From a virus, in the IMG/VR virus record IMGVR_UViG_3300009149_000016, positions 32,001 through 96,000 of that record: a stretch of 64,000 bases of DNA; one strand, given 5' to 3'. Positions 1 to 19,973 of the stretch are shown piece after piece (position 1 is the first letter of the stretch; the number at the start of each line of letters is the position of its first letter). The notes beneath the pieces are model-generated. The model worked only from the letters and a program-made list of their open reading frames with translations. It did no database searches and was not told the DNA's origin. The position numbers and the translations under genes were made by a program.

Positions 1-672
1 CCAATTGCCCGCCGCTCTGTCAAACCGAAGCTCGAACGGCAGTTGCCACTGAAGCATCCGGGGAAACGCACGACTGACCGCTCGCCGGTACTTACGCAAG
101 ATCACTTCGATCTTGCCATAGGCTTTGGCATCGGCTTTCGGGTCAAACCCAACGAGCAGCGTATTGAAGCCCTCAATTTCCCTTCGAACAGGCTCCGAGG
201 TGGGCTCCTCGAAACGTTCTTCCCACGCAAGACCATCTTCAAGTACACTCAGGGCGTCAACCCCCGCCGTCTGAAGATCGTTGACCCAATCATCCACTTG
301 GTCTTCGAAAGCAGCGAATTCTTCCTCTTCGTCCGAGTCCTCTGCGTACTCACCACCCCAAAGCGCTGGCTCTTGGATGGGCAACTCCAAAAGCTGGAAG
401 ATCTCCGTTCCGGCAGAAAGGAGCATGTCGCGCATGTCGCCAAGCTCTTCATCCCCTTGGTAACGCTCTTGGAGAGACTTGGCTGTCGCTTTGAAGCGGG
501 CGAGCAAGCGATCTCGAAAGACGTCCAGAGCGTCCTTGATCTGCATGGCTTGCTCGTAGTCTTTGGCCCCCTGCACGAGCCGCACGAGTCGTGACAGATC
601 GCCAAGCCAATCCTCGGAAGCTGTTTGGACCCACCGTTGGGCCACCCGAAGCGCCATTTGCCGATCCGACAT
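1..672 (-). CDS. Hypothetical protein with N-terminal RVAxRW tag (3' end runs off the window; missing from the ORF track)
   Basis: Manual translation: ATG at 672, 1 nt after the TAG of the upstream gene, open to position 1: MSDRQMALRVAQRWVQTASEDWLGDLSRL...; codon usage matches the neighbours. Confidence 0.8.
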   Translation of the reverse strand, partial: MSDRQMALRVAQRWVQTASEDWLGDLSRLVRLVQGAKDYEQAMQIKDALDVFRDRLLARFKATAKSLQERYQGDEELGDMRDMLLSAGTEIFQLLELPIQEPALWGGEYAEDSDEEEEFAAFEDQVDDWVNDLQTAGVDALSVLEDGLAWEERFEEPTSEPVRREIEGFNTLLVGFDPKADAKAYGKIEVILRKYRRAVSRAFPRMLQWQLPFELRFDRAAGNW

Positions 673-673
673 C

Positions 674-1690
674 CTACTTGACCTTGCCGCCCTGCATGAA
701 GTCCTCTTCCAGCCCGGGCACAAGGTACTGACTCCGAAGCGTGGAAGGCTCGTGGCCGACTGCCCCGGCTGTCTCCTCAAGCGCCTTGGCGAACTCGTCC
801 TTCAGTTTCTTCTCACGCTTCTTTGGGTCGCTGGGCAGCGTGCCCTTGCGGTTGGCCTTGAGGCGCTCTCGCATCTCTCGGTTCGCATGGAACCCTCGCA
901 AGTCCTTGGCTGTGACGCCGAATTCCTTCAGGTAGGCGTTGATATCCCCTGCCACCACATCACCGAACAGTTCCTCTGACTCGGCGCCGTCGTAGGCCGA
1001 CTTGAGCGCCTTGACGAGCTTGCTGTCCGTGACGGTCTTGTGTTGCTCGACGCCGGACTTGCCGATGTACTTGACCGTCGCACTGCCACCACTGAACGTG
1101 ACGTGCTTCTTTCGCCATTCCGAAACACCGAAGTGTCCGTCTTTGGCTGAACCCGGGTTGCCAATGCGCTCGAAGGTCGCGTCGATGAGCCCAACGATCA
1201 AAGCCGCTTTGGAAGTGCTGAGATCCTTGTTGACCTTCGACCGAAGCTTGCCGATGGCCTTTTCGAGCTTGGCGAGCCGCTCGGCCTTCTTTCGGTTGCG
1301 GTCGGCTACCTGACGATCGCTGTACTCGTAGACGGTCATTTCATCGCCGTCTTGCGTCTTGACCTTCTTTTTGTTCTGGTAACGCGCTGCGACACGCTCG
1401 GCCATGGAGGCTGAGAACGGAACCCGGTCGTAAGAGTCCTCGAAGTCTTCGCAGGTCTCTTGGGCTTTTTCCCTCAACCGCTCTAGCTTACGCTTTTCCT
1501 TGGTCGCCCGTTCTTGCTCCCTGTACCAAGCGGTCTCGTACTGGTCCTGCTTTTTATCGCAGTCCTTTTCGAGCTTTGCCTTCTCCCGCTGGTCTTTCTC
1601 CCACTCTCGAATCGCCTTGGAGAGTTCATTGAAGGCGTTGTCCTGAAGCCATTCCTCGCTCTCACCCGGATGCTCTTCCAGGTACTCCAT
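674..1690 (-). CDS. DNA topoisomerase IB-like protein (probably the C-terminal part of a longer read-through ORF 674-2752)
   Basis: TopIB catalytic-type motifs ERIGN, YIGKSG, INAYL, TAKDLR, GH...LRSQY; no RBS before ATG 1690; in frame with the upstream ORF. Confidence 0.8.
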   Translation of the reverse strand: MEYLEEHPGESEEWLQDNAFNELSKAIREWEKDQREKAKLEKDCDKKQDQYETAWYREQERATKEKRKLERLREKAQETCEDFEDSYDRVPFSASMAERVAARYQNKKKVKTQDGDEMTVYEYSDRQVADRNRKKAERLAKLEKAIGKLRSKVNKDLSTSKAALIVGLIDATFERIGNPGSAKDGHFGVSEWRKKHVTFSGGSATVKYIGKSGVEQHKTVTDSKLVKALKSAYDGAESEELFGDVVAGDINAYLKEFGVTAKDLRGFHANREMRERLKANRKGTLPSDPKKREKKLKDEFAKALEETAGAVGHEPSTLRSQYLVPGLEEDFMQGGKVK

Positions 1691-1744
1691 GAACTGTTCG
1701 GCCCGCTGATCGGGAGTGCCCTTGAACTTGTTCTTGAGCTTGTT

Positions 1745-2752
1745 CTAAGCGTGGGTGTACTCAGGCGGGATGTTGTTCAGCGCCCGCTCGTCATTTTCCT
1801 TCCGGCGCTGCCAACCAAGCTGCTGAGGGGACAGTTTGGCTTGGAAGCGAGACGCCACACGTTCGGCCATGATGTCGCTGAGAATGCGGTCTGACATTGC
1901 TTTGCTCCGATCTCGAACCTCTGCGAGCATCTTGGGGTCGGCATTGCGACCAATCTCTTCCAATTCCTCCCGAGTTGTAATCCGGGCGATCTTGGAGGCA
2001 AACTTTTGCAAGTCCTTGAAAGTCATGAAGCGTGCGGGGCCGGCTGCCTCGTGTTCCTCGACCTTGTTGCTCACCTCGTTGGGGGGTGAGGCCAAACACC
2101 AGTTCCAAAACTCAGGGGTGTCGCAGAACTTGCACGAGGTACCGGCTTCCTGCCAATCCTTCGAACCCGGCGCATAGCCCCAACTGAGGCCGAAGCGCCA
2201 AGCAAGGGTGTTGAGGCACCGCTCACAAGACCGGGCGGAAGCGATGATTGCATCCCCAAAGGGCAGCATGGGGGGCTTGCCGGCACGCTCAGTGGCTGTT
2301 TGAAACTCGTGGGGGGTAGGACGCACCATAGCGAGCACAAGGTCAGGAGAGTAGCCTGAGTGCCCCGTCATGACGTTGTCGAAACCGTGCGCTTCCCACT
2401 TCGTAGGCCACGGGGTGCCAATATCATGAAGCTGCGAACCCCCACACTCGACGCACTTGCGGCCTTCGAGGTGATCTTCCCACCCGTAGGTTGGAAGCAC
2501 CTTGGTATGGGGGCATCCTTCGACGACGCTGGGAAGAATCCGCTTCCTGACGTTCTCGGTCAACGTCATGGGGTCTTGGCTGATATAATAGGGGAAGGAA
2601 TCGGGAGGCTTGTCCTCCCAGGTGTCGACCTTGCCAGGGTCCCCATCACCCGGAATCCACTGCTCCCCTTCCTGATTCTCGTACCACATGGTCGGGAAAG
2701 GCGGTCGGATCGCGATCAAATATCGTGTGGCAATGCGCAGAGCGAGCGACAT
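1745..2752 (-). CDS. Cys-rich hypothetical protein with two RVA/RIA-x-R tags
   Basis: 335 aa ORF with CxxC pairs (CVEC, CERC, CKFC), N-terminal ALRIATRYL and internal AERVASRF. Confidence 0.7.
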   Translation of the reverse strand: MSLALRIATRYLIAIRPPFPTMWYENQEGEQWIPGDGDPGKVDTWEDKPPDSFPYYISQDPMTLTENVRKRILPSVVEGCPHTKVLPTYGWEDHLEGRKCVECGGSQLHDIGTPWPTKWEAHGFDNVMTGHSGYSPDLVLAMVRPTPHEFQTATERAGKPPMLPFGDAIIASARSCERCLNTLAWRFGLSWGYAPGSKDWQEAGTSCKFCDTPEFWNWCLASPPNEVSNKVEEHEAAGPARFMTFKDLQKFASKIARITTREELEEIGRNADPKMLAEVRDRSKAMSDRILSDIMAERVASRFQAKLSPQQLGWQRRKENDERALNNIPPEYTHA

Positions 2753-2755
2753 TGT

Positions 2756-3157
2756 TCAGCCCGCCTTGATTCGATCTCGAATGATCTGGCGTACGTCGAT
2801 CGGCTGAATCTCGATTTCGGTGGCGAGGCGCAAGTACCACCCGGTCTGCTTTTCGAAGGTGTCGATGAGTGAGTCGGCGTAGATCCCCCGATACTCTTTG
2901 ACTTTCTTGAGCCCCCGGGCCGACCCGTTGAAGAACGTCATATCGTAGGTGTCGTCCCCACGAAGCTCGACTTCACAGATGTTGCCCTTGCTCCGCTGCT
3001 TGTTGGGCCACTTGAACATGACACTTTTGCCGGTCTTTTTGATGACCGACGCGCCAAGCATGGCGAACATGCGTCCACCACCCATTTGCTCCAAGATGGT
3101 TCGGGCAACGTCCGCTTGTTTCAGGTAGCGCTCTGCGACTCGTTCGACGATCGACAT
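2756..3157 (-). CDS. Conserved phage hypothetical protein with N-terminal tag
   Basis: VARTILEQMGG...DDTYDM...IYADSL..FEKQTG resembles a recurrent small phage protein family (from recall); begins MSIVERVAERYL. Confidence 0.75.
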   Translation of the reverse strand: MSIVERVAERYLKQADVARTILEQMGGGRMFAMLGASVIKKTGKSVMFKWPNKQRSKGNICEVELRGDDTYDMTFFNGSARGLKKVKEYRGIYADSLIDTFEKQTGWYLRLATEIEIQPIDVRQIIRDRIKAG

Positions 3158-3191
3158 GCCTAGCCAACCTTAGAAAAAGAACATCGATTGG

Positions 3192-3220
3192 TGGATTGGA
3201 ACCAGCCTGCCGCCTTAGAA
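3192..3220 (+). promoter_or_regulatory. Class-1 promoter-like motif (TGGATT-N17-TTAGAA)
   Basis: One of 5 copies with exact 17-nt spacing, followed by GGGGCAC. Confidence 0.6.
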
Positions 3221-3291
3221 GGGGCACAACAACGCGACTCAACGTCCCGAGTGCTAAAACGAAAGCCCGGGACGTTGCCGTTTAAGGGCTC

Positions 3292-3298
3292 GGTGTAG
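3292..3298 (+). promoter_or_regulatory. Class-2 motif GGTGTAG, 8 nt before ATG 3307
   Basis: One of 12 copies at 8-9 nt from a start codon. Confidence 0.65.
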
Positions 3299-3306
3299 AG
3301 GTTATC

Positions 3307-3528
3307 ATGGGTGTTCGAATACTCGAAGGTACGAAAATCAACGACGGACCGAATGCAGGAACCGGCGCCGTGCTGTATTGCTCGACGTCTGGCATCGCCA
3401 TGGCCCCCATGTTCACCGACGGCGTGGAAGCTCAGCGGTTCCTCGACTGGTTCAAGGATGACCCCCGTACCAATGACCATCGCACCTACCAGGAATGGCA
3501 GCGCTGGGTTCGGGAAGGGAAACCTTGA
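3307..3528 (+). CDS. Small hypothetical protein
   Basis: 73 aa ORF preceded by the class-2 motif. Confidence 0.7.
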   Translation: MGVRILEGTKINDGPNAGTGAVLYCSTSGIAMAPMFTDGVEAQRFLDWFKDDPRTNDHRTYQEWQRWVREGKP

Positions 3529-3618
3529 CTGACGCGCCCCCGCCACACCATACTGGTCATGCCGATGGGGGATGACCATCGTGCCTAACTGCCCAAGAGG
3601 GCACGAAAGGATACCCCC

Positions 3619-3936
3619 ATGGTCAATATCACAATTGGACGTTTCGAAGATGATCCCGAAGCTCAGGGAGTCGTTCGCCCTGAAGACGGCCGGTGGCAAC
3701 TCGTCATCGACAAGGACGGCTACCCCCACCTGTACATCCAAGTCAACATTGAGCATGAGGGAAGCAAGGGCAAAGGTTTGCTCTGCATCGACGACATGCT
3801 TCATGGGAAGATGTCCATTCGGGATCTCATGGATGGTGGCGAAGCATTCGGGATCCCCACCCCCGAAGACGAAGCGGCGGCGTACCAAGAATTCTTGGAC
3901 GACCGAAAGGCCAATCCGATTCCTTGCCCTCGATAG
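3619..3936 (+). CDS. Hypothetical protein
   Basis: 105 aa; AAGGA Shine-Dalgarno upstream; coding-like composition. Confidence 0.7.
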   Translation: MVNITIGRFEDDPEAQGVVRPEDGRWQLVIDKDGYPHLYIQVNIEHEGSKGKGLLCIDDMLHGKMSIRDLMDGGEAFGIPTPEDEAAAYQEFLDDRKANPIPCPR

Positions 3937-3953
3937 TCGGTGTAAAGCCCCTC

Positions 3954-4289
3954 ATGGGAAAGAAGGACTTCGAACAGATCAAAAAAGATGGCGGTTACCA
4001 CCCTCGTCTCGGCGACAAGATCCTTGAGGACAAGACCAAGATCGAATGCCTATGGCCGGACGGCTCCATCACGAGGCACAAGTGCCGGGTCGTGTCCGTG
4101 ACCGTTCACGTCGACCACCTGGGACGGTACCCGGGCGACGGCTGGACTTCGAAAGAGAATCGAGATCGAGCCTACATCACCATCGAGCACAACGGGTTGA
4201 AGCTTGACGTTCCCCTCACCGACGAAGGGATCAAGTGCCGGCGAGCCCCTAAGAAGTCCGAAGCCTCCACCCAGTGGGAAAGACTCTAG
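3954..4289 (+). CDS. Hypothetical protein ending STQWERL
   Basis: Start reassigned to ATG 3954, 8 nt after GGTGTAA (3939-3945). Confidence 0.7.
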   Translation: MGKKDFEQIKKDGGYHPRLGDKILEDKTKIECLWPDGSITRHKCRVVSVTVHVDHLGRYPGDGWTSKENRDRAYITIEHNGLKLDVPLTDEGIKCRRAPKKSEASTQWERL

Positions 4290-5245
4290 TCCTTGGGCAA
4301 AACCCAGCCACCCTCGAACATGTCGAGGATCTCAATGAACATGTCATAGGGGTTCTTCCCCTCGTGGTTCACGAGGGTGTTGAAGCCTGCCGCCGCCGTG
4401 TGACCCCCACCCCCGGGAAACATCTTGGCGAGCGCCTTACAGTCGAAACCCGTGTGGCTCCGTGTCGAGTAGATGATCTTGCGCTCACCACCCTCGACGA
4501 ACATGTTGAAGCCCACGACCAAATCGGCATCCTTGTCGATAAGCTCGGCGGCATCGCTCGACGAACGCGTTCCTTCAAACAAGACAACCTTCGTGCCCTT
4601 CTCGCTCTTGGTGCGCCACGCCTCCCGCACCTTGCGAAGGATGCTCTCGTTCCAATCATCGTCGATGAATGCTGGAAGCGTTCCATTGAGAAGGTCGATT
4701 GCCTCGGCCAGGTCGATCGACATCCAAAAGTCCCGGGGCAAACGCATGAGAGTTTGCGCCTGCTTTTTTGCCAAAAACCAATCCGGTGATTTCGTCTGCC
4801 AGGTGTCCCGGATCCCTGCAAGCTCAGCGAACCGGCTCACCTCTTGCTCGCCGACCATTTTGCCCAGACGCTTGATTCGATAGACTGACGGTTGCCAGAT
4901 GTGACGGAAAGCCAGCACGGCCCCGCTCACCCCTGGCTCTTCTTTCTCGTCGGCGTAGACCCCCCGCTCACCGAACGCCGCAACCACGTCTTTGGCACCC
5001 TTGTGGTGGTCGAGACAGAACGCGCCACCGTCGATGAATTCCTGGTACCGGCTGTGGTGGGGGGAGAAATCGACGAACGTCAGACCCTCCTGCACCACCA
5101 TATTTTCGTGCTCTGGTGTGTTGTACTGCATGAATTCGATTGGGACGCTCGGCAACGCGTCTCGCACGATCATGGCAGAGGCAATACCGTCAGGGCAGTT
5201 GGCGTGAGAAACGACCTTGGTGATCTTCTCAACTGGGATTGTCAT
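4286..5245 (-). CDS. DHH/DHHA1 family phosphoesterase (NrnB-like oligoribonuclease)
   Basis: Motifs SHANCPDG, FVDFS, LDHHK, GGGHTAAAGF; ATG 5245 overlaps the upstream TGA (ATGA). Confidence 0.85.
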   Translation of the reverse strand: MTIPVEKITKVVSHANCPDGIASAMIVRDALPSVPIEFMQYNTPEHENMVVQEGLTFVDFSPHHSRYQEFIDGGAFCLDHHKGAKDVVAAFGERGVYADEKEEPGVSGAVLAFRHIWQPSVYRIKRLGKMVGEQEVSRFAELAGIRDTWQTKSPDWFLAKKQAQTLMRLPRDFWMSIDLAEAIDLLNGTLPAFIDDDWNESILRKVREAWRTKSEKGTKVVLFEGTRSSSDAAELIDKDADLVVGFNMFVEGGERKIIYSTRSHTGFDCKALAKMFPGGGGHTAAAGFNTLVNHEGKNPYDMFIEILDMFEGGWVLPKD

Positions 5246-5895
5246 GACAGCTTCGCTTTCTTGGCCCTGATCGCGTCGAACAGGACATTCCGAAGGGTTG
5301 TTGACGTGACCTTGTTTCGAATCTCGGCGCTCGCTGTGTACCACTCGTTGAGCGCTACCAGGGTGTCGAGCCCCTCCAACTCGCCGAGAAGCTGCTTTTG
5401 GGCGTCATACTCGACTGTGTTGAACTCTGTCTGCTTGAATTCTTCCGCCGACTTGCTTGAAGCGGCTTCCGGCACGTCGCTCAGCTTGTTGGTCACCTCG
5501 GTGACTTGGCCGGCGACTTCGAGTGCCTTCTCAAGCGTGCCCCGGCCCCGCATGACAGCAGCCGGATCCCCAGCGAAGATCGCATCGACCGTGAACTTGA
5601 GCGCGTCGAATGCCGCCATGAAGGCGTTGAACTGCGCCTGGCTCTTCATGTGGGGCAAGCCCATCTTGAGAGCATCCATCATGGCATCGTTGCCCACGCC
5701 GCCAACCGGCCCCACAGTCTCCGGACCTGGTTCCTCGATGACTTCCGCAAAAGCTTTACGGGCGAACTTTTCAGCGTCGCCCCCCTGTGCGATGAGGCTC
5801 TTTGCGACGTCCTTGGTAGCGGACTTCCAAGCCTCCTCTCCATGGGTCGCTTTGATCTGGTCGAGTTGCTTTTGGAGTTGGTCGAAATGGCTCAT
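5242..5895 (-). CDS. Hypothetical helical protein
   Basis: 217 aa ORF with GAGGA RBS. Confidence 0.75.
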   Translation of the reverse strand: MSHFDQLQKQLDQIKATHGEEAWKSATKDVAKSLIAQGGDAEKFARKAFAEVIEEPGPETVGPVGGVGNDAMMDALKMGLPHMKSQAQFNAFMAAFDALKFTVDAIFAGDPAAVMRGRGTLEKALEVAGQVTEVTNKLSDVPEAASSKSAEEFKQTEFNTVEYDAQKQLLGELEGLDTLVALNEWYTASAEIRNKVTSTTLRNVLFDAIRAKKAKLS

Positions 5896-5960
5896 GTCCG
5901 GTCCTCAAGACGCTCCCAGATCGTCGGTTGCGTCCGCTGTCGTTGGATTGACCCCGCACT

Positions 5961-6236
5961 TCATTTCTTTCCCATCAAAACATCGAACATCTTGGCCGAA
6001 TTCTTTTCGGAAGTTGCGGCCCCCATCTCTCGCAAGCCAGTCTGGAAGAGACCTTGAAGTAGCCGGGCCCCTTGCTCCCGGTCCTTCGTGATCGCCCCCC
6101 AACAGCCCTTGCAGAAGGAAAGCCGTTCTCTATTTACACCACTGGCACGAAGATACACGCGCTCTTGTGGAGTGAGATCCAAAAACTCGAAGCCCTCATC
6201 CGGCTTCTCTTTGGTGCAAAGGTCACAAATTGCCAA
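5961..6236 (-). CDS. Small Zn-finger protein
   Basis: CDLC...CKGC; GGAGG RBS. Confidence 0.7.
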   Translation of the reverse strand: MAICDLCTKEKPDEGFEFLDLTPQERVYLRASGVNRERLSFCKGCWGAITKDREQGARLLQGLFQTGLREMGAATSEKNSAKMFDVLMGKK

Positions 6237-6861
6237 AATGAGCCTCCGTGAACTGCTTGAGCATAAGACCCATCAAATCGAGAAGCTGCAAGTCCCCCTC
6301 CTCAATCTTCGACCCGAGCAAGACCGCTTGCCCAAGAGGTAGGTGAACGTAGGGCATGGAATGCCGCCATAGAAGCTCACGTTCCAAGGCATAGAAGGTT
6401 TTCAGGACAGGGGCGGATGGGAGGATCTCGACAGAGGCGTCAAACCTGTGCGGGTGGCAAAGCGTTGGGTCATCAATCGAGGACATCATCCGGCAGCGCA
6501 AGGGTCGCCCCTTGTACGCAGAACACTTGTTGTCCCGAAGCAGGGGGCATGGGACAGCGCTCAAGAGCCAAACCTTGTAGTCGAGCCCATTCACCTTGTT
6601 GGACGCCTCCTGAAGGCGGTTCCGGAGCGTTGACGTCCATAGCCGCTCTTTCTTCAGATGCCGGTACAGCAAGATCCCTTCGAAGAAGCTGATAAGCACC
6701 GGGTGGTGACAGCAGTGGTCACAACCCTTTCGGCACGTGATCGGGCGGCGCATCTTGGTCAGAAGCGCTTTGCTTTGCTGCAACCACCGCCCCTCAATCT
6801 CGATCCGGGTCGCCTTGACGTCTGCAACCGCCTGTCGGAATTCAGGGGTCGTCATCGTCAT
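6223..6861 (-). CDS. YkgJ/CxxCxxCC family cysteine-cluster protein
   Basis: CRKGCDHCC...CPLL...CSAYKGRPLRCR. Confidence 0.8.
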   Translation of the reverse strand: MTMTTPEFRQAVADVKATRIEIEGRWLQQSKALLTKMRRPITCRKGCDHCCHHPVLISFFEGILLYRHLKKERLWTSTLRNRLQEASNKVNGLDYKVWLLSAVPCPLLRDNKCSAYKGRPLRCRMMSSIDDPTLCHPHRFDASVEILPSAPVLKTFYALERELLWRHSMPYVHLPLGQAVLLGSKIEEGDLQLLDLMGLMLKQFTEAHFGNL

Positions 6862-7327
6862 CCTCTAGGATGTGATCAAACGCCGTGAGGGGCGCCCGGG
6901 GAACCTCTTCCGCCCGCTGCGCCCGCTCGGCCATCGTCCCAAAGCTACGAGGAATGGCAACCCGGACGCCGGGGGAGCCAGGGCGGTAGGTGATGATCAG
7001 AGCGTCCCCGTACCGAAGGGCCAAGTCCGGATGCACGTACAAGGGGCCACCCCGGGAATCGATGTCCGGCGTCACCCACTGCATGAACCGGGTGAGGTTC
7101 TCAAGTCCCTGCCGCACGCCCTGAATGCTGCCACGTCCAATAGGGACGGTCAGGAAGGGCCACTCTTCGGGCGGGTTCCAAAGGGTCGTCCACTCAGCAT
7201 CATCGTCGGCGACATCATAGGAGCGGCCGGTCTCATCGGCGCATCGTCCCATCTTGATTGCGCGATTGAAAGCGATGACCTGACGCCGAAGCCCCGCCGA
7301 ATTCACGATGATGTCGCCAATCCTCAT
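6842..7327 (-). CDS. Hypothetical protein
   Basis: 161 aa, coupled to neighbours; ends PLTAFDHILEDDDDDP. Confidence 0.7.
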   Translation of the reverse strand: MRIGDIIVNSAGLRRQVIAFNRAIKMGRCADETGRSYDVADDDAEWTTLWNPPEEWPFLTVPIGRGSIQGVRQGLENLTRFMQWVTPDIDSRGGPLYVHPDLALRYGDALIITYRPGSPGVRVAIPRSFGTMAERAQRAEEVPRAPLTAFDHILEDDDDDP

Positions 7328-7653
7328 CGGAACACCTCACCACCATTGAAGCCGTCCAGGTACAGTTGGACGAGCCCCTTGAGGACTTCCGGGGAAACGG
7401 TGTTTTCGTAGGGGAGCGTTGCGTTCTCGACGGCCTTCGAAAGGGCTTGCGGTACGATCTGTGTCAGAGGTGGCTTGCCGTGTCGCTCGACCAGGGCTTG
7501 CCAGTCTTCCCGGGCGTCTCGTTCGAAGCCTTCTGCTAACCAAAGAAGATTCGTCCAAACATCGTCGGGATGCCGTACATTCATCTTCTCACAGACAAAC
7601 CGTTGCAGGTTCGTCCGGATGAGCCGGCGTGCCGCTTGCTGAATTTCGTCCAT
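7324..7653 (-). CDS. Hypothetical protein
   Basis: 109 aa; AAGGA RBS. Confidence 0.7.
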   Translation of the reverse strand: MDEIQQAARRLIRTNLQRFVCEKMNVRHPDDVWTNLLWLAEGFERDAREDWQALVERHGKPPLTQIVPQALSKAVENATLPYENTVSPEVLKGLVQLYLDGFNGGEVFR

Positions 7654-7683
7654 AGTGTTGTCCTTACCTAGAACAACACCAAG

Positions 7684-8349: not shown

Positions 8350-8366
8350 GGGGATCTCCTCTGATT

Positions 8367-10863: not shown

Positions 10864-10886
10864 TGTGAGATTCTACACCAAGTTGG

Positions 10887-10915: not shown

Positions 10916-10943
10916 GGGGCACACACCAACCCCGGAGACTGAC

Positions 10944-11456
10944 ATGGGCTTTTTCTCGTACAATTGCAAATGCTGCGGACACTCACTCATCTCCCAGTCG
11001 GCTTCCTGCGCTGTGACTGCATGGATGGTCGAAGCCGTTGCGATTGAAGCGAATGGCTCCGTGCTCGTGGGCGAGTATGACGGCTACGGACGCATTGGCG
11101 ACCATGAGATCGACGCCTACGGTGAAGGCCCCGTGGCCTATCACAAGGAGTGCTGGGACCACGCAGGACGCCCTACGAACGACCTGACGCCCAGTGAGCA
11201 CGCAGGCGACCAAGGGTTCTTCTTCAACGACGGCGACCACGACATGGCGCCCCCCTCCTGCGAGGATCCCGAGACTTACATCACCGAGAAGCGGATCGAG
11301 CGCACCACGCGCCGCCAAGCCGCCGAGCTTTGCCAGGTGAACAACTGGTTCGAAGAAGCCTGGTACGCCCTCTGCAAGTATCCCGAGGACGAGCCCACCT
11401 GGCTTGAGGACGAGCACAAGCGTGCGGTCAGGCGCTCGGAGTACGGAGACATATGA
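10944..11456 (+). CDS. Cys/His-rich phage hypothetical protein
   Basis: MGFFSYNCKCCGHS...GEYDGYGR...HKECW...DQGFF; GGAGA RBS. Confidence 0.8.
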   Translation: MGFFSYNCKCCGHSLISQSASCAVTAWMVEAVAIEANGSVLVGEYDGYGRIGDHEIDAYGEGPVAYHKECWDHAGRPTNDLTPSEHAGDQGFFFNDGDHDMAPPSCEDPETYITEKRIERTTRRQAAELCQVNNWFEEAWYALCKYPEDEPTWLEDEHKRAVRRSEYGDI

Positions 11457-11815
11457 GCAAGCCCCTCCCCGCCAAGTGGTACGACAAGGCCCCCCGCCTC
11501 GCAACCATTGCCAAGTGGATCAACGCGAACACAACCCTACACGCATGGATCGAGGAAGGATTCTGCGACACGGACCGCAAGTACAAGGGGTCTCGAATCC
11601 GGTTCCCGGGCAAGGGTCGAACCGGCAATCACCTGTTTGTGACCACCGAAAGGGTTTCCCGCCATGCGATGACCCGGGCGGAATTCTACAAGTTCGAAGT
11701 CATCTCCCACAACGCCGCCGAAACCTACCGGTCCAATGACGAAGTGGTCACGAGCCTCGACCACTACTTGAAAAAGAACCCGAAGCGGTTGATTGCGACC
11801 AAGCCCACGCCTTAG
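11453..11815 (+). CDS. Hypothetical protein
   Basis: ATGA overlap; 120 aa. Confidence 0.75.
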   Translation: MSKPLPAKWYDKAPRLATIAKWINANTTLHAWIEEGFCDTDRKYKGSRIRFPGKGRTGNHLFVTTERVSRHAMTRAEFYKFEVISHNAAETYRSNDEVVTSLDHYLKKNPKRLIATKPTP

Positions 11816-11817
11816 AA
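11789..11817 (+). promoter_or_regulatory. Class-1 promoter-like motif TTGATT-N17-TTAGAA
   Basis: Repeat copy; ATG 8 nt downstream. Confidence 0.7.
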
Positions 11818-11825
11818 GGGGCACA

Positions 11826-12206: not shown

Positions 12207-12209
12207 GAG

Positions 12210-13439
12210 CTACTTGTCGGTCTTCTTACGGGGCTCGTGCCGCCAGGCCGAGCCCTCTACTTTGTCAGCAAGACTTGCACAGAACGCGCCGGGGTCGTCG
12301 ATCTTGCCTTCCATCTTTTTGATGCAGGCGGTGACCTTGTGCTTGTTGTCGCCCGTGAGCTTGCCCCAGAACTTTTTGACGCTCTCATCCGTCCAGCCCT
12401 TCGGCAGCTTGTTCCACTTGCCAGCCTCTACGGTCACCAAGTCGCTTCCGAACACCAGGGAGGCCCGAACGCACCGGATGCTGTTGGAAGCCATCTTCTC
12501 GGCGCACTTGGGGCAGATCTCGGCCATCATCTTCTGATCGACCCAGAAGTCCGACAACGGCTGCGAACCGATGTGCTCGGCTGCGACCCGAAGGGTCATG
12601 TCGGAAGCGGTCTTGTTTTCTTTTCTGAGGTGGTCAAACAGTGCGCCCATGGCGTATTTCTCCCGTGGGGCAATTTCATTCCACATCTCGTCAACGACGT
12701 CTTTGATTGCCCAATCGATCTCTTGCGGCTGGTTTTCGACGTCAAGCCCCTGGTCCGTCAGGTACTTCCAGACCTTGTCGTAGGAGAATTCGCTCCCCCG
12801 GCCTGTCAACTTCGCCATGATGTGGCTGATCGCCTGGCGCTCCGGGGTCCAAAGGTCAGACATCGACGGGTCTACTTTGAAGTCGAACGGAAAGACCCCT
12901 CGACGAACGTTGTCGATGGCTCGTTCCAGGTCGCGCCGGATGAATTTGTCGAAGTAGTAGCGAACCTGAACCTCGATCTCCCGGGTCCAATCGTCCTTGT
13001 TCTCTTCAATGGAATCTTGGAGGCTTTTGAGAACCTTGTCTGCAAGCTTGCGCATGAAGCGCTCAATCCGGCGAAACGTCTTGTTGTCAACCCGGTTGAT
13101 CTGTCCCTTGCGGTCAAGCTGGACAATCTTGGCTGACATCTGGTTCGCTCGGCCGTAGACCTTTTCGTTGCCGTCGGTCGCACGCCACATGGCGACCATC
13201 TTGCGTTCCGTGTCGTAAACCCAAAGGTACTTCCACTTGTTGCCGGAAGGGAGCTTGATCAACCGTGCGCCGCCAGGTACCTCTTCCTCATCCCCTAAGG
13301 CATCCATGAGGGGACCAGCATCGGTCGAGAGGTTATAGGTCTCACCATCGATCTTGACGGTGGGCACACCCGGCTTGCGTTGCAGCGGGATCACATCACC
13401 AGAAAAGCGTTGAACGATTCTTTGTACCAAGGGATCCAT
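12210..13439 (-). CDS. Two-module hypothetical protein with tags LVQRIVQRF and TLRVAAEH
   Basis: Start at ATG 13439 after AAGGGG; C-terminal Cys-containing module (CPKC, AFCASL). Confidence 0.75.
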   Translation of the reverse strand: MDPLVQRIVQRFSGDVIPLQRKPGVPTVKIDGETYNLSTDAGPLMDALGDEEEVPGGARLIKLPSGNKWKYLWVYDTERKMVAMWRATDGNEKVYGRANQMSAKIVQLDRKGQINRVDNKTFRRIERFMRKLADKVLKSLQDSIEENKDDWTREIEVQVRYYFDKFIRRDLERAIDNVRRGVFPFDFKVDPSMSDLWTPERQAISHIMAKLTGRGSEFSYDKVWKYLTDQGLDVENQPQEIDWAIKDVVDEMWNEIAPREKYAMGALFDHLRKENKTASDMTLRVAAEHIGSQPLSDFWVDQKMMAEICPKCAEKMASNSIRCVRASLVFGSDLVTVEAGKWNKLPKGWTDESVKKFWGKLTGDNKHKVTACIKKMEGKIDDPGAFCASLADKVEGSAWRHEPRKKTDK

Positions 13440-13464
13440 CACCCCTTGTTGAACCATCAAAAGT

Positions 13465-13860
13465 CTAGTTGTCGATGAGTTGGGCAAGCTCAGCGTAGGT
13501 TTCCGAAAGGGTACGAAAACACTTCGCCATCTTCGCGTGCTTTTGCTGTGACGGGGCGGGTGTCCCGGGCCTCGAAAAGTGCTCTTTGATTCGGTTGGTG
13601 TCCTCGGTGCACATGCAGAAGCTCTCGATTTGGTCCCAAAGCGTCAAGCCCGAGCCTGTTTGCATGGTGCGCTCTAGAATTCCAAGGGTGACGGCAACAT
13701 CTCGCACCCGACGCCGCCGTTCTTTTGTTGAAAGCCGTTGAGCCCCTAAAATCCGGTCGTATTCGTTCCGACGGATGGGCCGTCCAAGGATACTTCCGAG
13801 CTTGAGCATGATTTCCATACCAAGCTTCCGGTAGTTGTAGTGCTGTTGTTTCGTCGGCAT
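13465..13860 (-). CDS. Basic hypothetical protein
   Basis: ATG 13860 is 8 nt after a class-2 motif (13869-13875). Confidence 0.65.
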   Translation of the reverse strand: MPTKQQHYNYRKLGMEIMLKLGSILGRPIRRNEYDRILGAQRLSTKERRRRVRDVAVTLGILERTMQTGSGLTLWDQIESFCMCTEDTNRIKEHFSRPGTPAPSQQKHAKMAKCFRTLSETYAELAQLIDN

Positions 13861-13868
13861 GGGAAGAC

Positions 13869-14306
13869 CTACACCATCCGGCCGTCTTTCGGGTACCACA
13901 GGCGAGGCATGAGACGACGCAAGGTCAGGATGGTCGAATCACGAGCAGTTCCGTTGAGAGTGAACCGGGATGGGCGTCGCGCATTTCTAACCACCGCATG
14001 GGGTTGGTTCATCCGCTCCGTGTAGTCGAGCCACGCCTCCCACGCTTGCTGGGGCGTGAAGTGTGACGGCACGTTGAACTCGATTCCCCGTTTCGAAAGC
14101 CACACTTCCCAGTTCGGACGCTCCCAGACCCAGTAGCGGCGATGCCCCAAGACAAGGCACTGGGTTTGACGCCCGAGCCAATGCCTGTGGGCATCTACGA
14201 GCCGCCCTCCCTCATCAGAAAGGGCAAACGAGAATCTCAGGTAGTCTTTAGCGAATTCAGGCCCGAACAGGTCTGATTGACTCACGATGTTGAGGATGGG
14301 GACCAT
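13869..14306 (-). CDS. Hypothetical protein
   Basis: Start at ATG 14306, just after the RNA ligase stop. Confidence 0.55.
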   Translation of the reverse strand: MVPILNIVSQSDLFGPEFAKDYLRFSFALSDEGGRLVDAHRHWLGRQTQCLVLGHRRYWVWERPNWEVWLSKRGIEFNVPSHFTPQQAWEAWLDYTERMNQPHAVVRNARRPSRFTLNGTARDSTILTLRRLMPRLWYPKDGRMV

Positions 14307-14307
14307 G

Positions 14308-15171
14308 TTACTGAGCTTGTAGTTTCGCTTGGAAGTATTTCTTGAACAGCTTTGCTGTCGTCGAACCAATGGCTTTTCGAGCCTCCTTGCTATCGACGAT
14401 CTCCCCTGCACCCTCGCGCAAGACATCCTCCGTCATCGCTTGGATGACTTCTTTGGTCCGTTCCATCCCGATGTCGCCCTCGATCTTGTCCAGGACATGC
14501 TCAAGGCGAGTCGGAGTCACCCACTCATCGGCGATGGCTTGCGCTTCCTCCAACACCTTGAGCTTTTCCGGGTCGACTACCTGGCGAGGCGTATTGGTCT
14601 CCCGCTCCTCATCTCGCTTGTGCTTCGAAAGGACACGCTCCCCCCGGTGGTCTCGGTATTCCGTCAACGGACGAAGCACGACACCTTCACGGGGTTGAGG
14701 TTCTTCAATCCCATTGCGAACCGCTTGAACACTCGGCGCATCCCGCTGCTTGTCGATCTCTTCCACGGTGGCCGCAATCCGCTCATAGTGGACGAATTCC
14801 AAGCTAAGTTTGGTCGCAACATTATGGGCGTTTTCGACGGACAGCCACGTGTCATCGATCTTGACCTCAAAGGCAGCGAACTTCAGATCCTTGCCGTATC
14901 TCCAGGTCTGCTTTTGCTGACTCCCACCATACGCTTCGCCGTAGACAACCACGGTCGGATGACCCAGCGCCTCGAAGGCTTTCACAAGCGCAGCCTCATC
15001 GAACAGCGACCGAAAGCGTTCCGCCTTCGCGCCGCCCGACGAGAATTGCAACTTGCCATCCCGCCATTGGATGCTGGTTGACGTCCCATGGAGCTTTTCC
15101 AAGGCAAAGCATTCCTTGAAGGCTAGGATTCCCTGGTTCTTATAGAGGTTCTCGATGTGTCGGTAGCCCAT
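14308..15171 (-). CDS. RNA ligase, Rnl2-like
   Basis: Nucleotidyltransferase motifs EKLHGTS (I), VYGEAYG (III), AFEV (IIIa), EGVVLRP (IV), SKHK (V). Confidence 0.85.
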   Translation of the reverse strand: MGYRHIENLYKNQGILAFKECFALEKLHGTSTSIQWRDGKLQFSSGGAKAERFRSLFDEAALVKAFEALGHPTVVVYGEAYGGSQQKQTWRYGKDLKFAAFEVKIDDTWLSVENAHNVATKLSLEFVHYERIAATVEEIDKQRDAPSVQAVRNGIEEPQPREGVVLRPLTEYRDHRGERVLSKHKRDEERETNTPRQVVDPEKLKVLEEAQAIADEWVTPTRLEHVLDKIEGDIGMERTKEVIQAMTEDVLREGAGEIVDSKEARKAIGSTTAKLFKKYFQAKLQAQ

Positions 15172-15177
15172 TTGATC

Positions 15178-15363
15178 TCATCTTTCGTTGCAGAAAGGAA
15201 TCTTCTTCCGCTCCATCTCGGCCTTGGCCTGGCAAGAGATACACCAGGCCACTTCAGGCCAGTTGGCTCGGCTTTTTTGACAGGTGGTGCCCTGCATCAT
15301 GCAAGGCTTCTTTCCAAGCTCTAGAAGCTTCGCATAGGGCAGGGCTTCGAGGGGGCGTTTCAT
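15178..15363 (-). CDS. Small Cys-containing protein
   Basis: 61 aa, ATGA-coupled to clpX; C..C..CISC. Confidence 0.55.
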   Translation of the reverse strand: MKRPLEALPYAKLLELGKKPCMMQGTTCQKSRANWPEVAWCISCQAKAEMERKKIPFCNER

Positions 15364-16622
15364 CCCTTGGCCTGCTTTTTCTCCTCTTGCTGGATCGCTT
15401 CATCGATCCGGGCTTCGGCCCCCTCGACCACCAACTCAGTAACGTGGATCGCCTTCATGTCGGGGTCAGAGGGCGCGTCGAACATGTAGGGCTCCAAGAT
15501 AGCCTCAACGATCCCTCGGAGCGCTCTTGCCCCCGTGGGCTTCTCGCAAGCCTTGCGAGCGATGGCATGCAGGGCATCATCGTCGAACGAAAGGGCAACC
15601 TCATCGATCGTGAACAGCGCTTCGAACTGCTTGACCAGGGCGTTCTTGGGTTCGGTCAGGATACGCACCATCTCATCCTCGGTCAGGGGAAGCGTGCTGG
15701 TGATCACCGGCAGCCGGCCGAGAAGCTCAGGGATCAGACCAAAGTCGAGGATATCATCCTCGGTAATGTTGCCGTAAACCTCATCGGCCTTGATCCTGTT
15801 GGGCTGCCCCCCGCCGAATCCGAGCCGGGCGCCCTTGTTCCGGCGCTCGCCCACGACTTCCTCGATCCCGGCGAACGATCCCGAACAGATGAACAGGATG
15901 TTGGTTGTGTCGATCATGTCGGAAGTACCCATCCCGATCTTCGAACCCATCCCACGAGGCACGGGCACAACCCCACCCTCGACAAGCTTCAGAAGGGCTT
16001 GCTGGACGCCTTCACCGGACACATCTCGGTACCCCGTCGCTCCCCGCCCGCTCTTGCGGGTGAGCTTGTCGATCTCGTCCACGAAGATGACGCCCCACTC
16101 GGCGCGCTCGATATCCCCATCGGCGTCCTGAATGAGCCCCTGAAGCATCGTCTCGACGTCATCACCGACGTAGCCAGCTTGCGTCATGCGCGTCGCATCC
16201 GACACGTAGAAGGGCAGCTTGAGCATACGTGCCACCGACCGAGCGATGTGGGTCTTGCCGGTACCCGACGGGCCCATGAGCAAGATGTTGGACTTGTCGA
16301 TTTCGATATCGCCCGCAATCCCGTCCTTGACTACGCCACGTCGTTTGAAGTGGTTGTAGACCGCAATGGCAATCGCTCGCTTGGCACGGTCTTGGCCGAT
16401 CACATGCTCGCTGAGGATCTTGAAGATCTCACGGGGCTTGAGAAGGATGTCATCCCCGCCCTGTTCCGCAGCTTCCTTGTTGCGGTTGGTGATCGCCTTG
16501 ACGGCAGAATCAATGCAGCGGTTGCAAATGAAGGGTCCTTCGTCACCACCCGAGATGATGTGCTTCACCTCGTTGGAAGGGCGACCGCAGAAGGAGCAGA
16601 CTTGACGCTTGGCTCTGGGCAT
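15360..16622 (-). CDS. clpX: ATP-dependent Clp protease ATPase subunit ClpX
   Basis: CSFCG...ICNRC zinc domain, VIGQ, AVYNHFKR, GPSGTGKT, GYVGDDVE, VDEIDK, RDVSGEGVQQALLK, LGF loop, TGARALR. Confidence 0.95.
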   Translation of the reverse strand: MPRAKRQVCSFCGRPSNEVKHIISGGDEGPFICNRCIDSAVKAITNRNKEAAEQGGDDILLKPREIFKILSEHVIGQDRAKRAIAIAVYNHFKRRGVVKDGIAGDIEIDKSNILLMGPSGTGKTHIARSVARMLKLPFYVSDATRMTQAGYVGDDVETMLQGLIQDADGDIERAEWGVIFVDEIDKLTRKSGRGATGYRDVSGEGVQQALLKLVEGGVVPVPRGMGSKIGMGTSDMIDTTNILFICSGSFAGIEEVVGERRNKGARLGFGGGQPNRIKADEVYGNITEDDILDFGLIPELLGRLPVITSTLPLTEDEMVRILTEPKNALVKQFEALFTIDEVALSFDDDALHAIARKACEKPTGARALRGIVEAILEPYMFDAPSDPDMKAIHVTELVVEGAEARIDEAIQQEEKKQAKG

Positions 16623-16658
16623 GCCTCAATCTACACCGGCACGGAGCCGGGAGCGAGG

Positions 16659-17393
16659 CTAGATCTCACCCATCACGAAGCAAGGCTCACTCCACTTGAG
16701 ACCTTCACATTCGACCAATCCGTGCGGATGAATCACGCACACGCCACCTTCCCCGAAATTGTTGGGAAGCTCTTTGCCATATCGGTTGGCAACGACCAAC
16801 ACACACTTATTGTCCTTGGCGAATTCCATCCATGTAACGGCAGGAAAACCCCCATCGCCCCAGTTGGCACTCATCGCCACGATATCCGCATCCCCGGGAT
16901 CGTAGAAGTAAGACCCTTTCTCGGTGGCCTTGTCTCGAATGTCCCGACAGATCAACAACCCCATCTTCAGCATCCGCTTGCCGTCAAGGATATGGATCAC
17001 GGGAGGATTGTCGAAACCAGGATCAGCCCAAAGAAAGTCGTTCCCCCACCGGTTGATCTTGTTGTAGCTCTGGTAGTAGCCCCCCGGCGTCACCAGCACT
17101 TGGCTATTGAACAGATGATCGTCGACATGGGAGACCATTCCCCACACGATATCCACGTTATATCGCCGAGCGACTTCCATCATGACCTTGAGCGTTGGCC
17201 CAGTGCTGATGTTCTCGGAGAGCTTCCAGGCGTCTTCCTTGTTCATGATGGAATAGCCCGTCGTGCAAAGCTCTGGTAGCACCACTAGCCTCGCGCCCGC
17301 TTTGGCAGCATCGACCACCAGCCGGGCTGCTTGTAGCAGGTTGACCTCTTTTTTTCCAAAGACGGGCTGAAACTGAACGGCTGCAACCTTCAT
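16659..17393 (-). CDS. Carbon-nitrogen hydrolase (nitrilase superfamily)
   Basis: VAAVQF, VLPELCTTGY (E), YNKI (K), LLICRD (C), VANRYG. Confidence 0.9.
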   Translation of the reverse strand: MKVAAVQFQPVFGKKEVNLLQAARLVVDAAKAGARLVVLPELCTTGYSIMNKEDAWKLSENISTGPTLKVMMEVARRYNVDIVWGMVSHVDDHLFNSQVLVTPGGYYQSYNKINRWGNDFLWADPGFDNPPVIHILDGKRMLKMGLLICRDIRDKATEKGSYFYDPGDADIVAMSANWGDGGFPAVTWMEFAKDNKCVLVVANRYGKELPNNFGEGGVCVIHPHGLVECEGLKWSEPCFVMGEI

Positions 17394-18733
17394 GCGTCTA
17401 CCACCAATTCCTCGAACAAAGCTGCTTGGGACGGGGGAAGCTCGCCCAAACAGTAAAAAGCGAACATTTCGGCAAAGTTCTCATCTGGGCTTGTCTTGGC
17501 GTACGGGGTGATGAACCCCTTGAAATCGTTCTTGAGCATCCTTGGGTCGATGCCCTTGAGTCTCAGGTACCCGAACAGGTTGATCTCCGCTGTATCAATA
17601 GAGAAGCTGCGGCGGGTGATGATGTCGATGAGCATCTTCTTTTCCCGCTCTTGCTCTGGCGTGAGAACCCCTTTGAACAGATCGGGAGCCTGCTTTTCCG
17701 CAGAACGAAGCACCTGAGCTTCAAGCTCTTTCTTGTCCTTGTCCGTCAGGACTTTCCGAAGATGAACCTTGTCTTTCTTCATGTACGTGACTTCGTACGT
17801 CTCGCCCTTATCCGTGATGGTGTCACCACGTTCGGGACGATAACCAAGGAAGTCGCTCTGATACCCATCCTCGGCGGCATTGTAGAGGATCTTGGGCACA
17901 CGCTTGTTTTTCAAGAACTTGTTTTCGTACCGATGACCAAGCTCATGAATGATGGTGCGCACGGAGCTTCCCGCCGCAATTTTCTTGTCAGCACGAACGA
18001 AGAATTCATCCGACCCGTAAACGTAGAACGCAAGTACGTTCCCTTTGTCGATCGACTGGCTGATATGAACCTCGCCGTAGCAGACCTTGCCAAGCCCAGC
18101 GGTTGTGATCTCCGATGCAGCCTCTTTGACTGCCTTAGCGCAGATGTCCATCACACCATCGGGGAAGCCACCCATGTTGATGAGGGTGAAGGGTCCGGCC
18201 TTGACCTTCACGGGGTCGTCGGCATCACCCACCGCAATCTCACGACCCTTGCTCAGCGCTTCTTCCAGCGTACTGAAATGCGCCCGAAGGGTATCGAGGT
18301 ACTTGAGATAGTACGTCAGGTAAGCATCGGTGCGCTCCAAGTCCTTCCTTGGGAGGCGGGGGCGGCGGTTGGTTTTCTTCGTCGCCCAAAACTTGACGAG
18401 CTTCTCGACCTTCTTACGCAGCGTTGCTGACAGGCTGTAGGTCTGGAGGATCGCCATCGAGATCCCCCACATCTGGTTGAACCGCTGATTGAAGCCGACC
18501 ACCTCGGACATGATTGTGAACATGTCCCGACCGAAATCGGGTTTTGCCACGTCCTTGCCACGAGCCAAGTCCTTTTTGTACTGCGAAAGGATGGCTTGGA
18601 ACCGCTCGGCGTCCTTCTCAGCGTTGTCGTAAAGGTCGAACTTGCGCCGAAGCTCTTTGAGAAGTGCTTTCGGATCCTCGACGACCGCTGCCTCCAAGTA
18701 CCGGGTGGCGACTCGCTCAGCATGAACGCTCAT
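17390..18733 (-). CDS. Zincin-like metallopeptidase-domain protein with N-terminal tag
   Basis: IIHELGH plus distal TPYAKTSPDENFAEMF; starts MSVHAERVATRYL at ATG 18733 (ATGA overlap). Confidence 0.7.
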   Translation of the reverse strand: MSVHAERVATRYLEAAVVEDPKALLKELRRKFDLYDNAEKDAERFQAILSQYKKDLARGKDVAKPDFGRDMFTIMSEVVGFNQRFNQMWGISMAILQTYSLSATLRKKVEKLVKFWATKKTNRRPRLPRKDLERTDAYLTYYLKYLDTLRAHFSTLEEALSKGREIAVGDADDPVKVKAGPFTLINMGGFPDGVMDICAKAVKEAASEITTAGLGKVCYGEVHISQSIDKGNVLAFYVYGSDEFFVRADKKIAAGSSVRTIIHELGHRYENKFLKNKRVPKILYNAAEDGYQSDFLGYRPERGDTITDKGETYEVTYMKKDKVHLRKVLTDKDKKELEAQVLRSAEKQAPDLFKGVLTPEQEREKKMLIDIITRRSFSIDTAEINLFGYLRLKGIDPRMLKNDFKGFITPYAKTSPDENFAEMFAFYCLGELPPSQAALFEELVVDA

Positions 18734-19938
18734 GCCAACCACCGGTTGGCAACTCGGAGGGCCACACGATCCGCCCCGGACTGAACGAGCCTCGTGAGCC
18801 GGTCTTGAAGCTCTCGTGGCTTGACGAAGGGGTCGTCCAGGATCAGATCCCGGGCCATGTCCACAGCTTTGCTAATGGCGGCTCCCTTGATGCCCGTATC
18901 CTGAATGAGCCGTCGGGTATCAATCGGCGGCTTCAAAAGCTTGTTGTAGACATCTTCCAAGTCGTCATAGCCGAGCTTGCTCTCAATCCGGCGAAGCATC
19001 CGGAGATGTTCAGGACGGAGCTTGTCCAACCCTACCGGAATCTCGAAACCGGCGAGCGTCAAAAGCAGATCGATGTTCTTGACTCGTTGTCCCACGGCTC
19101 GACGCAAACGGCTTGCCGGAAACATCGAAAGCACAGGATCGAGAAGTCCGAGCCCCTTCATGATGGTGAGCGCCTTTTTAGCGCCGGGCAGCTTCAGGAT
19201 CTTGTCGAAGAAAAGCTCGTCGATCGCCTCGTACGAAACCCTTTTGATTTCCTTGGCTTTGCTCTTGATCGCCCGCCGAGTCGCCGGGTCCAATTCGAAA
19301 CCGTATTTCACAGCAAAACGAATCGCCCGAAGCATCCGGGTCGGGTCGTCATCGAAGGTCTCGTTGGGGTCAAGAGGCGTCTTGACGATCTTGTCCTGCA
19401 AGTCCTTGAGCCCAAGCCCGGTCAAGTCGAGGATGGCTTTCTTGTCGGGACCTTGAGCCACATCGAGAAGCCGCCACACGAGCGCGTTGAACGTGAAGTC
19501 CCGGCGAAGCATGTCTTCGAGGATTGTTCCGGGCTCGACCTTCGAAGGCTTGTGACTCCCCTTTTCCTCTCCCTTGCCCTTTTCGTACTTCTCTTTGCGA
19601 GAAGTCACGATCTCGATCTTCTGTCCTTTGAGGTTGACCCCGTCGAATTCAACGTCCACGGGGACAGGTCCAATGTGCACGACGCCGTATTGGTCGGCCT
19701 TGACGTTGGGTACCTGAAGGGCATCGGCAACCGCTTCGGCGAGCGTGACGGCATTCTTGCCGTTTTTCGGCTCGACCACCACGTCGACATCTTTGAAGTC
19801 GAACCCCAAAGCGAAGTCCCGGGGGGCCCCGCCCACGATGTAACTGTGACTGGCCATACCAAGCCGTTTGGCGGTGGCTGACAGCAGTTTGACCAAGGCG
19901 TTGGCCTGTTGGGGGGTGGCGTCGGCAAGTCGGAACAT
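18730..19938 (-). CDS. tRNA nucleotidyltransferase (CCA-adding)/poly(A) polymerase family with C-terminal tag
   Basis: IVGGAPRD, KDVDV, EDMLRRDFTFNA, DDPTRMLRAIRF; ends ALRVANRWLA. Confidence 0.9.
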   Translation of the reverse strand: MFRLADATPQQANALVKLLSATAKRLGMASHSYIVGGAPRDFALGFDFKDVDVVVEPKNGKNAVTLAEAVADALQVPNVKADQYGVVHIGPVPVDVEFDGVNLKGQKIEIVTSRKEKYEKGKGEEKGSHKPSKVEPGTILEDMLRRDFTFNALVWRLLDVAQGPDKKAILDLTGLGLKDLQDKIVKTPLDPNETFDDDPTRMLRAIRFAVKYGFELDPATRRAIKSKAKEIKRVSYEAIDELFFDKILKLPGAKKALTIMKGLGLLDPVLSMFPASRLRRAVGQRVKNIDLLLTLAGFEIPVGLDKLRPEHLRMLRRIESKLGYDDLEDVYNKLLKPPIDTRRLIQDTGIKGAAISKAVDMARDLILDDPFVKPRELQDRLTRLVQSGADRVALRVANRWLA

Positions 19939-19973
19939 TTCAACCTCAGTCTGCCCGCCTCATAGGAAAATTG

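Follow-up and report, generated by a model that had tools for sequence, protein, structure and literature searches.

Tag copies and their carriers

The stretch of DNA analysed here (the window, 64,000 nucleotides) comprises bases 32001-96000 of a 107,136-bp virus record, IMGVR_UViG_3300009149_000016 (G0 below; positions are those of the window unless they are called genome positions, which are those of the record). Several of its minus-strand genes encode proteins that share a short peptide, here called the tag, of the form [AV]xR[VI]AxR[YFW]. The record also encodes a large DNA polymerase, a DnaB-type and an SNF2-type helicase, thymidylate synthase, and a block of very large late proteins that includes a tail fibre with an endosialidase-chaperone domain. 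Since no terminase, portal or head protease gene is found among its genes, the record is a genome fragment. The closest match of the polymerase is in LR745208.1 (also G3 below), an uncultured 485-kb phage, and a megablast of the first 20 kb against GenBank phages gave no match.

In a six-frame scan of the whole record, the strict motif has eight matches, all on the minus strand and seven of them inside the window, in a total of seven proteins. Zincin 1 (HEMGH motif), whose gene extends beyond the left edge of the window, has the tag ALRVAQRW (631-654) five residues past its Met. The gene at 674-1690 encodes a coiled-coil region, a tag and a topoisomerase IB (TopIB) domain (Pfam PF01028, residues 130-317); its copy, AERVAARY (1379-1402), is internal and directly N-terminal to the TopIB module, so placed that its R-Y merges into a KYKxKKK element of TopIB. 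A Cys-rich protein of 335 amino acids (aa; 1745-2752) is tagged at both ends, with ALRIATRY (2720-2743) three residues past the Met and AERVASRF (1844-1867) 32 residues ahead of the stop. The 133-aa protein encoded at 2756-3157, a tag followed by a phrog_9437 domain recognized by its PHROG profile, has VERVAERY (3125-3148) three residues past the Met. Zincin 2 (HELGH motif; 17390-18733) has AERVATRY (18698-18721) four residues past the Met, and a CCA-type tRNA nucleotidyltransferase (18730-19938; PF01743, PF12627) has ALRVANRW (18739-18762; in extended form, ADRVALRVANRWLA) at its extreme C-terminus. The eighth copy (genome 13301-13324) is not in the window; it belongs to the C-terminal part of the product of a 113-aa open reading frame (ORF) that has a 2H phosphoesterase gene just downstream. 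All these genes are on the minus strand. For the two zincins, Pfam gives a sub-threshold Peptidase_Mx1 match only. The 2H protein itself ends in LASRVVLRHRLA, which is probably a degenerate tag, because relatives carry a tag at the equivalent spot after the 2H domain.

The number of copies is far above chance. Only 0.014 strict matches are expected, by amino-acid composition and by 2000 per-protein shuffles alike, with at most one match in any shuffle. The copies score 15-24 bits with a hidden Markov model (HMM) built on them, and the top match in reversed sequence scores 8.5 bits. An earlier note on this DNA had listed nine copies. Seven of those are the strict matches in the window; the other two, LVQRIVQRF (13404-13430, minus strand), at the N-terminus of a 425-aa protein, and TLRVAAEH (12573-12596), are not above background with either HMM. 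The former scores 3.8 bits and is a degenerate copy at most, and the latter is not among the HMM matches at all. The note's observation that the replication and nucleotide genes are free of the tag holds for the polymerase, helicase and thymidylate-synthase genes. It also held that the copies are conserved as protein, not as DNA, and this follows from the codons, which differ among copies for Arg (AGG, CGG, CGT, CGC, CGA) and also for Val and Ala.

The position of the copies is equally distinctive. Four start 3-8 residues past the Met, one ends two residues short of the stop, two are within 35 residues of the stop, and one immediately precedes the TopIB domain. Thus, seven of the eight are at most 12 residues from the start or at most 35 from the stop; the chance of at least seven of eight being so terminal is 2e-5. 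The copies are accordingly at protein ends or, in the TopIB protein, at a module boundary, as had been claimed.

The tag lies outside the folds of its carriers

The phrog_9437 family provides the clearest view of how the tag relates to a folded domain. The PHROG profile of the 133-aa protein begins only at residue 17, past the tag. Most of the 26 homologues are without the tag; it is at the N-terminus of P0001-P0004 and P0006 and at the C-terminus of P0011 (...WYLRLASRVATRYLG...). Because it can be N-terminal, C-terminal or absent within one small domain family, the tag is portable and not part of the fold. In an AlphaFold (AF2) model of the 133-aa protein, the domain has a predicted local distance difference test (pLDDT) score of 85-94, and the tag residues are helical with a pLDDT of about 49, a value that indicates that the tag is not packed on the domain. 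A Foldseek search of this model against the PDB gave no match at E <= 0.001. Profile, homologues and model together bear out the earlier proposal of a portable helix that is usable at N-terminal, internal and C-terminal positions, outside conserved domains.

The one internal copy of G0 abuts the TopIB domain so closely that it might be taken for a part of the TopIB fold. This can be ruled out: the orthologues in L068 and L073 keep the KYKxKKK start without a tag, and in L071, L079 and L080 the tag is apart from it. Among TopIB orthologues, the tag is therefore fused to that start, separated from it or absent. Zincin 1 behaves similarly. In L065 it is fused to TopIB and the junction is without a tag, whereas the separate zincin 1 of G0 and of G3 has an N-terminal tag of its own. 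A tag is found on both of the ends that the split between the CCA enzyme and zincin 2 has produced. At least one label for each polypeptide is the pattern that an address label predicts.

In some phages, a different N-terminal element, LRxx[LIV]IRLAxxxPxLRPxLLPLL, stands in the place of the tag: in P0010, P0018, P0025 and P0026 of the phrog_9437 family and in the G2 homologue of the 425-aa protein (L028; G2 19946-20830). It may be an alternative label of these other phages.

The tag in related huge phages

A degenerate DNA pattern for MAERVAxRY led to two large IMG/VR contigs with several copies each, and a search with the TopIB protein to 24 loci, the longest contig being of 618 kb. In six-frame translations of these loci, the core R[VI]AxR[YFW] has 39 matches as opposed to one in the reversed control. 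Iterated HMM searches yielded 44 unique instances, of which 19 are at the N-terminus, 9 at the C-terminus and 16 internal; their consensus is [LMVI]-A-x-R-V-A-[AST]-R-[YFW]-[LKQ]-x-[AK]. Both Arg are invariant across the 44 instances. A variant, RVxARF, is seen in other genomes. Hydrophobic or small residues at -3, -2, +1, +2, +5 and +6 form one face of a three-turn helix, and the two Arg are alongside. Proteins common to the tag-bearing genomes are just 25-65% identical. The cultured phages whose portals are most similar to those of these relatives are Tunturiibacter phage Tunturi_5 (34% identity) and Bacillus phage G (23%).

In the relatives, the modules that G0 encodes singly are found mostly within one polypeptide. 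By BLAST, the tagged proteins of G0 align to segments of giant ORFs of about 2000-3100 residues, whose modules are the CCA enzyme, the 2H esterase, zincins, TopIB and the Cys-rich domain. In L071, an ORF of 2103 aa has, in order, 2H, CCA, zincin 2, two tags, TopIB, the Cys-rich domain, a tag and a C-terminal region. Other polyproteins are of 2048 aa (L078), 2026 aa (L062) and 2278 aa (L063). In L068, a 711-aa ORF (2H, tag, CCA) is followed by one of 3133 aa, and the G2 polyprotein of 1267 aa reads 2H, tag, TopIB, tag, coiled coil, tag. The CCA enzyme recurs as a polyprotein module in L071, L078, L068 and L063, the core of the Cys-rich protein in L062, L063, L068 and L075, and zincin 2 in L071. 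Because the tagged proteins of G0 are segments of such ORFs, the tag is a recurring joint of polyproteins. The earlier note had seen a tag on many unrelated proteins; the carriers are instead modules of one polyprotein family. As the sequences have it, the chain is in G0 broken into single, dispersed genes, each polypeptide keeping at least one tag.

This kinship raises the question of whether the motif has any function of its own, since every carrier traces to one polyprotein family and the tag could be a linker inherited from an ancestral repeated polyprotein. Such an origin without function is very improbable. Two Arg have stayed invariant in 44 instances in genomes whose shared proteins are only 25-65% identical and in which codons and flanks vary, and members of the phrog_9437 family differ by gain or loss of the tag at one end or the other.

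The location of the polyprotein genes is informative. By PHROG and BLAST matches, they lie between the portal and the head maturation protease genes in L062, L068, L071, L078, G2 (88.8-94.8 kb) and G3 (400-408 kb). In G1, L067 and L070, the gene directly after the portal encodes a protein of about 1000-1200 aa, which shares with the polyproteins an N-terminal element, KPxPKxKPPRxDxR ... DLSLNYK ... tag (the tag is degenerate in G1). In the complete 437-kb genome G004 (IMGVR_UViG_3300037297_000066), which has terminal repeats, the tag occurs in a 1080-aa ORF immediately after the portal, and further tags are scattered at 52, 136, 266 and 296 kb. Pfam has no family for either the head protease or the post-portal protein.

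Two features of this region deserve separate mention. A segment of about 75 residues, E-rich and then RLVRPxPKxKPPRxDxR, an acidic stretch and DLSLNYK, comes right before the tag (L067 15335-15700; L071 about 11260-11500; G2 90820-91050). It is found at the start of the post-portal head protein as well as inside polyproteins, and is a candidate portal- or core-binding or processing element. Past the head protease of L071, a 504-aa ORF (15772-17283) has an EF-hand pair (PF13499-type matches), which is unusual in a head-module gene.

A tag at the joints of polyproteins encoded beside a head maturation protease might be simply a recognition or cleavage site, at which that protease or the resident zincins cut the polyprotein and of which the terminal copies are relics. 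Glu at -1 with a hydrophobic residue at -3, seen in about a quarter of the copies, recalls the L/I-x-E sites of T4 gp21 (PMC9026906), and self-processing by zincin domains has been proposed for polyvalent proteins by Iyer et al. (2017; PMC5512222). However, the best-conserved copies are 3-8 residues past the Met or 2-8 ahead of the stop, where they separate nothing; both sides of the CCA/zincin 2 split are tagged; and the single-domain phrog_9437 family is tagged at either end. Nor is position -1 conserved (L, E, S, H), with Glu in 10 of 44 copies. A mere cutting site is thus an unlikely role for the tag, although cutting and capsid loading are compatible. The more specific idea that cleavage follows an Ala 1-4 residues downstream has found no support. 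That Ala is a weak feature, the third position past the aromatic residue being Ala in 30% and Lys in 25% of the copies clade-wide.

Comparison with known systems

The T4 capsid targeting sequence (CTS) of the internal proteins IPI-III and of Alt is strictly N-terminal and is removed by gp21 (Mullaney and Black, 1996; reviewed in PMC9026906). It confers affinity for the prohead core and lets accessory enzymes diversify and be injected with the DNA. Like the tag, it is a peptide of about 10 residues common to otherwise unrelated proteins, and in both systems carrier genes are found away from the head module, with core head proteins encoded between portal and protease. The two differ in that their sequences show no resemblance and that the tag is not confined to the N-terminus, where only 4 of the 8 copies in G0 and 19 of the 44 clade-wide are found.

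The relatives' enzyme chains of 2-12 modules, putative HExxH zincins included, encoded beside portal or terminase genes, resemble the polyvalent proteins of phages and conjugative elements as these are portrayed in a comparative study (Iyer, Burroughs, Anand, de Souza and Aravind, 2017; PMC5512222). Packaging and injection are the predicted fate of such chains, and their modules are shuffled between genomes. Two or more effector or enzyme domains per polypeptide, a mark of polyvalent proteins, are present in the relatives (2H, PolyA_pol, zincin and Topoisom_I in the 2103-aa ORF of L071) and are split up in G0 except in the coiled-coil/TopIB gene. Location with portal, terminase or late genes, another such mark, is seen in L062, L068, L071, L078, G2 and G3 but not in the G0 fragment. 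What sets G0 apart is that its chain is split into single genes and that its cargo consists mainly of TopIB, the CCA enzyme and the 2H esterase. That study does not speak of linkers, and a recurring junction peptide goes unmentioned in several of its passages on cleavage, processing and the capsid. A full-text literature search, which turned up polyvalent proteins (PMC5512222) and T4 and SPN3US head-targeting work, gave no description of this tag. As a docking label, the tag would be a counterpart of the CTS that tolerates different positions.

Short terminal peptides that dock inside an HK97-fold shell, and suffice to load foreign cargo, are exemplified by the cargo-loading peptides of encapsulins and the C-terminal coat-binding helices of the P22 scaffold. 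The encapsulin peptide can be at either terminus, depending on the family. Their sequences are unlike the tag, however, and the tag is also internal in polyproteins.

A different kind of reader is suggested by SspB, whose C-terminal ClpX-binding (XB) tail is a short motif of the ALRV.. type at a protein end. The tag could likewise be a docking peptide or degron for the zinc-finger N-domain of a phage or host ClpX, by which tagged enzymes would be unfolded, remodelled or destroyed at the proper time. G0 encodes a full-length clpX with the zinc-finger N-domain (15360-16622, minus strand), a candidate alternative reader, immediately after the tagged CCA and zincin 2 genes and a nitrilase gene, on the same strand. 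Also, clpX is present in all four of the large G0-like relatives tested (G003, G004, G005 and G007), and the tag resembles the ...ALRVVK tail of SspB. Unlike the tag, which is predicted to be helical, the XB tail is a beta strand. Moreover, clpX is absent from two near-complete tag-bearing relatives, G006 (618 kb, 92% complete) and LR745208.1 (485 kb), whose tags are located in head-module proteins. Among the large relatives tested, clpX is limited to the subclade with dispersed modules. A phage ClpX as the obligatory reader is thereby ruled out, and a ClpX of phage or host is a rather unlikely reader of the tag.

The composition of the tagged set allows yet another view, that the tags pair with each other through small-residue, Ala-rich helix packing, so that the split modules reassemble, in the manner of the docking domains of modular synthases, into a cytoplasmic multi-enzyme complex for RNA and DNA repair. 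The A-x-x-x-A spacing and the hydrophobic face would suit such pairing, the tag that ends the CCA enzyme and the one at the start of zincin 2 are encoded next to each other, the Cys-rich protein is tagged at each end, and the carriers make sense as a functional set (2H esterase, CCA enzyme and TopIB, with an RNA ligase nearby). But the polyproteins, whose modules are covalently joined, keep their tags anyway, and lone small proteins of unassigned function are also tagged. Pairing of tags is quite unlikely to be their purpose.

A proposed label for capsid loading

The best-supported reading is that the tag is a docking label that brings enzymes into the prohead or capsid, and we regard its chance of being right as approaching even. 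It is favoured by the gene position in the relatives and by the pattern of a label on each polypeptide. Independent, if circumstantial, support comes from the relatives, whose counterparts of these modules and tags are encoded between the genes of the portal and of the head maturation protease.

In the mechanism that we propose, the tag would act as a short, exposed amphipathic helix that serves as a portable address for the modules of a head-associated cargo protein family, of the polyvalent kind, in a single huge-phage clade. The 2H esterase, CCA enzyme, zincins, minimal TopIB and Cys-rich domain are in most relatives encoded as one giant polypeptide by a gene right after that of the portal, joined to the N-terminal element of the conserved post-portal head protein and with tags at the joints. 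While the prohead assembles, the helix could dock, by its two invariant Arg and its small/hydrophobic face, on one common component of the head core, be it scaffold, portal or inner capsid surface. All tagged proteins would thus be packaged together and travel with the DNA on delivery. They may afterwards be processed by the prohead protease encoded nearby.

Several points weigh against capsid loading. The T4 CTS, its nearest parallel, is strictly N-terminal and removed, whereas the tag is also C-terminal and internal. Polyproteins have two or three tags, though one would be enough for loading. The gene position in the relatives is circumstantial, and in G0 the tagged genes stand amid accessory and replication genes, on a 107-kb fragment that is without head genes. 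We know of no cultured member among the tag-bearing phages, and in Tunturi_5, the cultured phage closest by portal similarity (34%), model A1 found no tag, which is a weak negative because the initial filter passed no candidates.

Extended to the whole tag-bearing clade, the proposal is that a position-independent helix of ten residues is a general address of capsid cargo, such that any carrier is loaded into the prohead and injected. In this broader form the proposal is plausible but more doubtful than probable.

Neighbouring genes and a second label

The clpX gene and a CN-hydrolase (nitrilase) gene (15360-17393, minus strand) come after the CCA enzyme and zincin 2 genes on the same strand, and the four apparently form one operon. 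The word YCTTCTAAGG upstream of the tagged operons, with 10 matches and 4 expected, is uninformative as a shared promoter.

The ORFs at 1745-2752 and 674-1690 (minus strand) are in the same frame, and the gap between them (1691-1747) consists of a single TAG and 18 sense codons. TAG recoding is ruled out as the cause: TAG ends 38 of the 109 called genes, and is therefore a normal stop, so that a recent split or occasional read-through looks likelier than recoding.

An RNA-repair-like set is formed by an RNA ligase (phrog_548; 14308-15171, minus strand), the 2H phosphoesterase (genome 12706-13278, minus strand) and the CCA enzyme (18730-19938, minus strand). The ligase is 62% identical to its counterpart in LR745208.1. 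The set suggests that the tagged kit may counter host defences that target tRNA.

A second tag, [PT]-T-[VIM]-[WY]-[DE]-R-[LIM], often with an acidic tail, ends about 14 ORFs, 0-14 residues from the stop. Its carriers are mostly small plus-strand genes at genome 3.6-24 kb, to the left of the window; those in the window are at 3924-4289 (plus strand), 6842-7327 and 23133-23450 (both minus strand). A relaxed pattern, allowed at any position, has 24 matches as opposed to 5 in reversed sequence. The second tag is address-like and distinct from the first.

Implications

To our knowledge, huge phages are represented almost solely by metagenomic sequences, and how they select the contents of their very large capsids is not known. 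If the tag is a capsid-loading label, the injected proteome of uncultured phages would be readable from sequence alone, by means of a short, easily recognised label on as many as a dozen or more proteins in a genome. Such a label would also account for the passage of enzyme modules between polyproteins and single genes with their destination intact. It could, moreover, provide capsid engineering with a compact loading signal that tolerates different positions. Were the reader to be ClpX or another protein, the tag would still be a rare case in phages of a short linear motif system that is widely reused. With capsid loading, the tagged proteins would constitute an injected enzyme kit, comprising tRNA-end repair, a 2H esterase, topoisomerase IB and zincin peptidases, that these phages could assemble, split and reshuffle gene by gene.

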